DNA of 64,000 nt, from NCBI RefSeq assembly GCF_048403405.1, contig NZ_CP183129.1; one strand, given 5' to 3'. Made by a program: the position numbers and the translations under genes. The stretch is from Escherichia coli. GTDB lineage: Bacteria; Pseudomonadota; Gammaproteobacteria; Enterobacterales; Enterobacteriaceae. Each line of letters starts with the position of its first letter. Position 1 is the first letter of the stretch. Below the pieces are notes generated by a model. The model was not told where the DNA came from. It saw only the letters and a list, made by a program, of their open reading frames with translations, and searched no databases. Below are positions 40,227-44,013 of the stretch, piece by piece.

Positions 40227-40427
40227 CCAGAATACGGTAGTATTTTGCAGACAAAAATTCCGTAAATGGATTATTCGTTTATAATCAGGATAATCTAAAA
40301 AAAGGACCCCTGAAAAAGTGGTTAACATGGAACAAATGAAAGTTACTCCTTCTGTAATTGTTATGTCTTATGGCCTCATCCCTTTTAGCCGGATACTGAA
40401 AAACATCCTTCGAGAGGGACGGTTACC

Positions 40428-41141
40428 ATGAAGATTTTTTTGGAGAATCTTTATCATTCTGATTGCTATTTCCTGCCGATAAGAGATAACCAGCAAGACC
40501 TTGTCGGCGTTGAGTTAATTACCCATTTCTCCAGTGAAGATGGTACGGTTCGTATCCCGACGAGTCGGGTTATAGCGCAACTTACCGCGGAGCAACATTG
40601 GCAATTATTTTCAGAGCAGTTGGAATTACTAAAATCATGCCAACACTTTTTTATTCAACATAAACTCTTTGCCTGGCTTAATTTAACGCCACAAGTGGCT
40701 ACATTATTATTAGACAGGGATAATTACGCGGGCGAACTATTAAAATATCCGTTTATTGAACTGTTGATTAATGAGAATTACCCGCATCTCGATGAAGGAA
40801 AAGATAATCGCGATCTTTTGTCCTTATCGCAAATGTATCCCCTTGTGTTAGGTAATTTGGGCGCAGGCAATAGCACAATGAAAGCGGTTTTTGATGGTCT
40901 TTTCACCCGCGTCATGCTGGATAAAAGTTTTATTCAGCAACAAATCACGCATCGCTCCTTCGAACCGTTTATTCGTGCGATCCAGGCGCAAATTTCCCCA
41001 TGTTGCAATTGCATCATCGCGGGGGGCATTGATACGCCAGAAATAATGGCACAGATTACCCCCTTTGATTTCCATGCTCTCCAGGGATGCCTGTGGCCTG
41101 CCGTTCCTGTAAATCAGATAACGACGTTGGTTCAGCGATAA
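40428..41141 (+). CDS. ydiV: Degenerate EAL-domain anti-FlhD4C2 factor
   Basis: 237-aa ORF in a visibly AT-rich segment. Confidence 0.9.
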   Translation: MKIFLENLYHSDCYFLPIRDNQQDLVGVELITHFSSEDGTVRIPTSRVIAQLTAEQHWQLFSEQLELLKSCQHFFIQHKLFAWLNLTPQVATLLLDRDNYAGELLKYPFIELLINENYPHLDEGKDNRDLLSLSQMYPLVLGNLGAGNSTMKAVFDGLFTRVMLDKSFIQQQITHRSFEPFIRAIQAQISPCCNCIIAGGIDTPEIMAQITPFDFHALQGCLWPAVPVNQITTLVQR

Positions 41142-41164: not shown

Positions 41165-42640
<1,476 letters not shown>

Positions 42641-42643
42641 AGG

Positions 42644-42835
42644 CTACTTGGTCAACAGCAGCTTGCCAGCCTGAGTTTTACGGAGCAGATATTCTTGCCC
42701 GTCATGATCGATAATCAGTTTGCCATCCGGACCTAACAGTGTCTGGCTGGTAATTCGCCGGATGGGCTGCGGGGAAGCGGTCTTGTGATTGGCATCCGTT
42801 TCAGGCGTGAGTTTTCTGCTATCCGTATAACGCAT
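42644..42835 (-). CDS. ydiE: HemP-family small protein YdiE
   Basis: I chose the ATG giving [23 protein letters not shown]... (63 aa); the track starts 9 codons upstream. Confidence 0.7.
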
Positions 42836-42855
42836 AAAAATTAATAATAATTGAT

Positions 42856-42877
42856 ATAACAATGATTCTTATTATCA
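42856..42877 (-). promoter_or_regulatory. Candidate Fur box upstream of ydiE
   Basis: On the ydiE strand tGATAATaAgAATCATTgTt resembles GATAATGATAATCATTATC, about 20 nt upstream of the start. Confidence 0.5.
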
Positions 42878-42937
42878 ATATTCTGGCGAACCAGAGCAAG
42901 CAGTAATTTGTTGAGAAGACAACAAGTTGCGCAGAAA

Positions 42938-42960
42938 TGCCCATTCCGTCAGGAATGGGC
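42938..42960 (-). terminator. Hairpin just downstream of aroH (putative terminator)
   Basis: gcccattcc-gtcag-gaatgggc, 7 nt after the aroH stop; the U-run is weak. Confidence 0.45.
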
Positions 42961-42966
42961 ACGCAT

Positions 42967-44013
42967 TCAGAAGCGGGTATCAACCGCAGAGGCGAGTTTT
43001 TCGACCAGGCGTTCGGTATCTTCCCAGCCCAGACACGGGTCGGTAATGGATTGACCGTAAGTGAGCGGCTGACCGCCGACGATTTTTTGCGTTCCTTCGC
43101 GCAGGAAACTTTCCGCCATAATTCCAGCAATCGCCGTAGAGCCATTGCGGATTTGCTGACAAATATCCTCACAAACTTCTAACTGGCGACGGTGCTGCTT
43201 CTGGCAGTTACCGTGGCTGAAATCCACCACCAGATGTTCAGGCAAATCAAATTCGTGCAGCGTATCGCAGGCTGCGGCGATATCATCGGCATGATAATTC
43301 GGTTTTTTGCCGCCACGCATAATAATGTGGCCATACGGGTTGCCACTGGTCTGATAGATGGTCATCTGACCATTTTTGTCTGGCGAGAGGAACATATGGC
43401 TGGCGCGGGCTGCGCGGATAGCATCCACAGCAATCCGCGTGTTGCCATCGGTACCATTTTTAAAACCTACCGGACAGGAGAGTGCCGAAGCCATTTCACG
43501 GTGGATCTGACTTTCGGTAGTACGTGCGCCAATCGCGCCCCAACTGATTAAATCAGCAATAAACTGACCGGTCACCATATCGAGGAACTCAGTCGCGGTA
43601 GGGACGCCCAGCTCATTTACCTGTAAAAGTAATTTGCGCGCCAGCTCCAGACCGTGATTTACCCGATAGCTGCCGTTTAAATCCGGATCGGAGATTAGCC
43701 CTTTCCAGCCGACAACAGTCCGTGGTTTTTCAAAATAGGTGCGCATTACGATTTCCAGCCGTGACTGGTACTGGTTGCGCAGCGACTGCAGACGGGTGGC
43801 GTACTCCATTGCAGCGGTGAGATCGTGGATCGAGCAGGGGCCAATAATGACCAACAGTCGCTTATCTTCACCATTCAGTATTTTTTCAATTCTGCGGCGG
43901 GAGTCGGTGACATGGGTGGCGACGCCAGGCGTTACGGGATACCGTAGCGCGAGTTCGGCGGGCGTTACCAGGCTCTCAATACGCGCAGTACGGAGTTCGT
44001 CAGTTCTGTTCAT
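42967..44013 (-). CDS. aroH: DAHP synthase, Trp-sensitive isozyme
   Basis: 348-aa ORF. Confidence 0.95.
   Translation of the reverse strand: MNRTDELRTARIESLVTPAELALRYPVTPGVATHVTDSRRRIEKILNGEDKRLLVIIGPCSIHDLTAAMEYATRLQSLRNQYQSRLEIVMRTYFEKPRTVVGWKGLISDPDLNGSYRVNHGLELARKLLLQVNELGVPTATEFLDMVTGQFIADLISWGAIGARTTESQIHREMASALSCPVGFKNGTDGNTRIAVDAIRAARASHMFLSPDKNGQMTIYQTSGNPYGHIIMRGGKKPNYHADDIAAACDTLHEFDLPEHLVVDFSHGNCQKQHRRQLEVCEDICQQIRNGSTAIAGIMAESFLREGTQKIVGGQPLTYGQSITDPCLGWEDTERLVEKLASAVDTRF

Follow-up and report, generated by a model that had tools for sequence, protein, structure and literature searches.

Our analysis of a 64,000-nucleotide stretch of Escherichia coli DNA (the window, to which positions refer unless a strain is named) supports, with high confidence, a model whereby the site just upstream of ydiE (hemP) is the Fur operator of the ydiE promoter, with Fe-Fur sitting on the -10 element and the start site. 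In our model, a sigma-70 promoter of the form TTGCTC-17 bp-GATAAT would direct transcription from position 42863. When iron is sufficient, Fe2+-Fur dimers would hold the DNA from -19 to +6 and repress by steric occlusion, excluding RNA polymerase from the -10 element and the start site; these dimers are probably two, placed on overlapping registers. When iron is scarce, Fur would depart and a monocistronic ydiE mRNA would be made, with a 28-nt AU-rich leader that has no Shine-Dalgarno sequence and with a coding sequence for the 63-aa HemP-family protein YdiE. Fur control of ydiE as such is already known from microarrays, RNA-seq and ChIP-exo, and the gene is a member of the core Fur regulon; such control has reportedly been predicted since the early 2000s. 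The outcome of the present analysis is the anatomy of the site, that is, the promoter TTGCTC-17-GATAAT, a transcription start site (TSS) in the Fur box, an operator at -19..+6, a 28-nt leader without a Shine-Dalgarno sequence and the ATG at 42835 as the one usable start codon.

Sequence and position of the Fur box

The core 19-bp Fur box, GATAATAAGAATCATTGTT, lies on the minus strand at 42858..42876, corresponding to -13..+6 relative to the ydiE TSS, and agrees with the Fur consensus GATAATGATAATCATTATC at 15/19 positions, with the four mismatches at positions 7, 9, 17 and 19. It is the sole consensus match of at least 15/19 on either strand of the 64-kb window. An initial annotation of this DNA had described a match of about 15/19 on the ydiE strand within 42836-42880, roughly 20 nt 5' of the ydiE start, and this description proved accurate: the 15/19 match is found at 42876..42858, and 22 nt separate the end of the box from the ydiE ATG (42835..42833). 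A second Fur register, AATATTGATAATAAGAATC, is placed 6 bp further upstream (42864..42882, minus strand; 14/19 consensus matches, 13.8 bits), and the two registers combined make up a 25-bp Fur-like block that extends from -19 to +6. Such a 6-bp offset between registers is what overlapping Fur hexamer arrays are expected to show.

Because a consensus count of 15/19 is weak by itself, with 17% of dinucleotide-shuffled windows containing at least one match of at least 15/19, we built a PWM from which ydiE was left out. It was trained on 18 iron-replete Fur ChIP-exo peaks at classical targets in E. coli W3110 (fepA/fes, fepD/entS, fepB, entC, fiu, fhuE, tonB, yncD/E, sufA, cirA, mntH, exbB, yqjH, sodA, yddA, efeU, yojI and mntP), with peak coordinates taken from Dataset 2 of Gao et al. 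2023 (PMC10164565) and the best site refined for each peak. The ydiE box scores 19.2 bits with this PWM and is the top match of the window. Its score falls among those of bona fide sites, as the 18 training sites score 13.7-24.0 bits, with a leave-one-out median of 17.8, and match the consensus at 11 to 16 of 19 positions. Only 3.5% of dinucleotide-shuffled windows reach 19.2 bits anywhere, and for the 131-bp spacer between aroH and ydiE the expectation is 4e-5 matches of 19.2 bits at the composition of the window and 9e-4 at 25% GC. Judged against both the shuffled windows and the expectation for the spacer, the ydiE box exceeds chance at its location.

The second-best PWM match in the window, CAGAATGATAAAGATTCTC (40443..40461, minus strand, 16.5 bits), lies over codons 6-11 of ydiV (CDS at 40428..41141, plus strand). 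It coincides with the W3110 ChIP-exo peak for ydiU/ydiV at 1793696-1793708, which corresponds to window 40454..40466. That the second match of the PWM is at the only other published Fur peak of the neighbourhood supports the validity of the PWM. The MG1655 ydiV peak lies some 100 nt upstream of this (about 40318..40348 in the window), in a stretch where the PWM scan found no good Fur motif, and ydiV is nearly unchanged in Δfur (log2 -0.36 and -0.61).

The position of the Fur box overlaps the core promoter of ydiE. Table S1 of Kim et al. 2012 (PMC3415461) lists one ydiE TSS in K-12, at 1787609, supported by 184 reads and followed by a 5'UTR of 28 nt, and gives the -50..+1 sequence as CAACAAATTACTGCTTGCTCTGGTCAGCCATAATATTGATAATAAGAATCA, ending in GATAATAAGAATCA. 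This TSS is an A at window 42863 on the minus strand and lies inside the Fur box. The -10 hexamer GATAAT (42871..42876, minus strand, -13..-8) is made of the same bases as the first Fur-box hexamer. The predicted -35 hexamer, placed on the basis of the mapped TSS, is TTGCTC (42894..42899, minus strand, -36..-31), which lies 17 bp away from GATAAT and fits the consensus poorly, at 3/6 positions. A simple sigma-70 and terminator scan of 42600..43050 called neither a promoter nor a terminator because this -35 is too weak, and the T-tail downstream of aroH too short, for the thresholds of the scan, and the mapped TSS and folding were therefore used instead. The TSS comes from a single dataset, obtained without deliberate iron starvation, and there may be a second ydiE start that is used only upon derepression.

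The initial annotation had been concerned that a Fur box this close to the gene leaves a very short leader, so that the start codon or the promoter geometry deserved checking. This concern falls away, since the box lies on the promoter, covering -10 and +1, and not 5' of it, so that the leader is 28 nt long (42836..42863, minus strand). The leader is AU-rich and, with no G within the last 22 nt before the AUG, is without a Shine-Dalgarno sequence. Folding predicts it to lack structure (MFE -3.7 kcal/mol, z = +1.3), and ribosomes would presumably be recruited to it by means other than a Shine-Dalgarno sequence. Downstream of the TSS, the sole in-frame ATG of the gene is the one at 42835. A 72-aa ORF starting from a TTG at 42862 was considered and rejected, since this TTG, which occupies mRNA positions +2..+4 within the Fur box, has no support as a start.

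Conservation of the operator and the promoter

Orthologous loci were collected with a single-protein YdiE scan of one genome per species, which gave 13 loci in Escherichia, Salmonella and Citrobacter; the same scan gave no YdiE loci from Klebsiella, Enterobacter or Yersinia, and the conservation footprint is that of three genera. In an alignment of the upstream regions of 12 of the 13 loci with the window (13 sequences), the block ATTGATAATAA[G/T/A]AATCATTGT is invariant and its flanks diverge. Invariant columns make up 17/19 of the 19-bp Fur box and 19/25 of the combined 25-bp block with both registers, compared with 1/11 in the promoter spacer, 8/22 in the remainder of the leader and 7/30 in the first 30 nt of the CDS. 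A Fur site of 18.3-20.3 bits is kept in every ortholog, the upstream-shifted register being the one that scores best in Salmonella (18.3 bits), and the mismatches of the ydiE box at positions 7, 9, 17 and 19 are common to the genera, not random. Within E. coli, a 401-nt query over the ydiE locus was detected in 5422/5426 complete genomes, most of them at 95-99% identity and several complete chromosomes at 100%, and the 30-nt core has an essentially exact copy in 5272/5426.

This conservation also bears on where the promoter is. Shimada et al. 2014 give for ydiE exactly the pair TTGATA-16-TATCAA, located within a genomic SELEX peak of the RpoD holoenzyme. If this were the real promoter, with TTGATA at 42878..42873 and, after 16 bp, TATCAA at 42856..42851, transcription would start near 42844, the mRNA would be almost leaderless (about 8-9 nt) and the Fur box would cover the -35 and the spacer. 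TTGATA is in fact the better -35, matching the consensus at 5/6 positions. The pair is, however, a sequence guess inside a SELEX peak and not a mapped start, and it does not fit the start that has been mapped: 42863 is the only ydiE TSS in the genome-wide map, which reports none near 42844. TATCAA is, moreover, not conserved, reading TTTGAT in Salmonella and ATTGAT in Citrobacter, whereas CTTGC of the upstream -35 is kept at a fixed spacing in Escherichia, Salmonella and Citrobacter, and the -10 GATAAT is invariant at all orthologous loci aligned. We consequently regard the downstream promoter as unlikely and retain TTGCTC-17-GATAAT as the promoter over which the operator lies.

Three further features of these loci can be added. 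Just 5' of the -35, a motif A.TTA (window 42900..42908, minus strand; about -45..-41) is kept in the three genera and could be an UP-element-like contact or a half-site for another factor. At the Salmonella and Citrobacter loci (L009-L016), a second in-frame ATG is present 9 nt downstream of the first, in the form of ATGGAT where Escherichia has ACGGAT (columns corresponding to window 42835..42821), and S. enterica subsp. arizonae has ATA in place of the first ATG. The downstream ATG may be the real ydiE start in Salmonella and Citrobacter, and the start codon of YdiE, and hence its N-terminus, probably differs among genera; the N-terminal about 25 residues of the protein are poorly conserved. 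Finally, a YdiE 98% identical to that of E. coli is encoded on a 417-bp contig (NZ_POTZ01001146.1, 0.8x coverage) of an assembly named Streptomyces sp. NTH33, and this contig has almost certainly entered that assembly as contaminating E. coli DNA.

Fur occupancy and derepression in vivo

The aroH-ydiE spacer of the window differs from that of K-12 at three positions only (42889, 42888 and 42883), all of them between the -35 and the -10 (TTCGCCAG in this strain vs TCAGCCAT in K-12). The Fur box, the -35, the -10, the TSS and the leader are base-for-base identical in both, and K-12 data on the site therefore transfer to the window. Under iron-replete conditions, Gao et al. 2023 (PMC10164565) detected a Fur ChIP-exo peak for ydiE at 1787605-1787617 in MG1655 and at 1791295-1791307 in W3110. 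The peak overlaps the box in both strains. W3110 has the Fur box at 1791286-1791304, ahead of the ydiE ATG at 1791327, such that the peak covers the 3' half of the box; the 13-bp ChIP-exo peak calls are shifted toward this half. ChIP-exo is the binding evidence for the site; no ydiE-specific in vitro footprint or EMSA was found in the literature consulted.

Expression data agree with this occupancy. Among nine E. coli strains, ydiE is one of the 36 genes of the core Fur regulon (PMC10164565) and is derepressed in Δfur in 8/9, with log2 Δfur/WT values of +2.87 in MG1655, +8.14 in W3110 and 2.2-7.1 in six more strains. BL21 is the exception, with ydiE slightly down in Δfur (log2 -1.1; PMC10164565). 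A broken box as the cause of the BL21 response was rejected, the core 19-mer being intact. The ydiE promoter of BL21(DE3) differs from that of K-12 by a single T->A at -17 (window 42880), within the second register and just 5' of the -10. In Salmonella Typhimurium, where ydiE has a putative Fur site, the gene is up 7.4-fold in Δfur; in addition, iron restriction in egg white induces ydiE, and a study of UPEC and ferric citrate has ydiE in its table of upregulated genes with a fold change of 4.2. Earlier predictions and arrays, as far as they are cited in PMC3136457 and PMC3212961, already have ydiE among the predicted Fur targets, its expression depending on Fe-Fur. The iron control through Fur that the initial annotation had suggested for this HemP-like gene is thus borne out by the PWM, by ChIP-exo and expression, and by the mapped TSS alike.

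It could be argued that the block is conserved mainly as a core promoter, comprising the -10, the discriminator and +1, or as an AT-rich target of H-NS, in which case its likeness to a Fur box would be incidental and the response to iron indirect. The first Fur hexamer does double as the -10 element, the AT content of the region is very high, Shimada et al. 2014 flag H-NS at the aroH-ydiE spacer, and a 15/19 match to the consensus can arise by chance in shuffled windows at the frequency given above. However, a sigma-70 promoter does not require 19 invariant bases out of 25 contiguous ones from -19 to +6, nor does this argument account for a PWM score in the range of bona fide sites, for the cross-linking of Fur to the box in vivo under iron-replete conditions, or for the derepression of ydiE in Δfur mutants of eight E. 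coli strains and of Salmonella. We thus hold it to be very improbable. That a different Fur-family or metal regulator (Zur, MntR-type) acts at the site instead of Fur would be suggested by one property, namely that the boxes of the Fur family are all AT-rich palindromes. The ChIP-exo was done on Fur, however, the change in expression results from deletion of fur, and the box fits the Fur PWM at 19.2 bits, and we give this idea next to no credence.

As a Fur operator, the ydiE site is closely similar to classical E. coli Fur boxes that lie over -10/+1, such as those of fepB, entC, sodA and yqjH. It shares with them the 19-bp GATAAT-GATAAT-C-ATTATC architecture and the registers shifted by 6 bp, its score of 19.2 bits is in their range, and it is likewise bound under iron-replete conditions and derepressed in Δfur. 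At the level of sequence, it has every feature by which an enterobacterial Fur box is recognised. Nothing essential is different, the target being a tiny orphan gene instead of a transporter or siderophore operon. The site is the ydiE operator already published by Gao et al. 2023 (PMC10164565) for the Fur regulon of E. coli, and the strain of the window differs from K-12 there by the three spacer substitutions.

YdiE as an orphan HemP-family protein

In the RefSeq annotation, the gene order is ppsA, ppsR, aroH, hemP (= ydiE), selO, ydiV. The identities of aroH (44013..42967, minus strand) and selO (41204..42640, plus strand) were confirmed, and the ydiE CDS (42644..42835, minus strand, 63 aa, with its ATG at 42835) is the same ORF in RefSeq for a strain 100% identical across the 401-nt query. 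The aroH-ydiE spacer measures 131 bp and holds a hairpin just after the aroH stop (42937..42959, minus strand; fold -21.4 kcal/mol, z = -4.8) that is likely the aroH terminator. This hairpin consists of GCCCATTCC-TGAC-GGAATGGGC, its stem is kept through compensatory changes in Salmonella and Citrobacter (ATCC../..GGAT), and its T-tail is weak, comprising only ATTTCT. The hairpin likely ends aroH and thereby insulates ydiE as a separate transcription unit. With this hairpin upstream and the convergent selO downstream, ydiE sits alone between its two neighbours, as had been noted initially.

The ydiE and selO genes converge with 3 nt between their stop codons (window 42638..42646). A search of the minus strand across the 3' part of selO detected no intrinsic terminator for ydiE, whose transcript must therefore read on, in antisense orientation, into the terminal part of selO. 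The ydiE/selO pair is a candidate "excludon" in PMC12288877.

YdiE matches the Pfam family hemP (PF10636) with 55.9 bits, the gathering cut-off being 25, and profile positions 1-37 of 37, the full length of the domain, align to YdiE residues 27-63. Residues 1-63 match the PDB chain 4YNX, "Uncharacterized protein YdiE", and the structures of YdiE already solved are 4YNX and 2LOJ. Neither the neighbouring ORFs nor the RefSeq annotation include a heme-uptake gene adjoining ydiE, and the label "hemin uptake protein" of YdiE is a putative assignment by homology only.

HemP-family small proteins under direct Fur control, as we describe here for YdiE, are also found in Yersinia hemPRSTUV, Chromobacterium chuPRSTUV and Stenotrophomonas hemP-hemA. 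HemP/HmuP/ChuP in those organisms regulates the neighbouring heme-receptor gene, and in some of them it binds heme and activates the receptor gene. Those hemP/hmuP/chuP genes head heme-uptake operons, whereas in E. coli, Salmonella and Citrobacter ydiE forms a monocistronic unit flanked by aroH and selO and, unlike them, has no adjacent heme receptor or transporter. By analogy to rhizobial HmuP and Chromobacterium ChuP, it is tempting to speculate, albeit with little confidence, that YdiE might be an orphan Fur-gated, heme-binding (post-)transcriptional co-regulator with trans-acting effects on iron, heme or siderophore-receptor genes located elsewhere (e.g. chuA where present), and that the AU-rich leader without a Shine-Dalgarno sequence, which takes its first six bases from the Fur box, might provide translational control as a second layer. 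The Fur site itself tells only that YdiE is wanted under iron scarcity.
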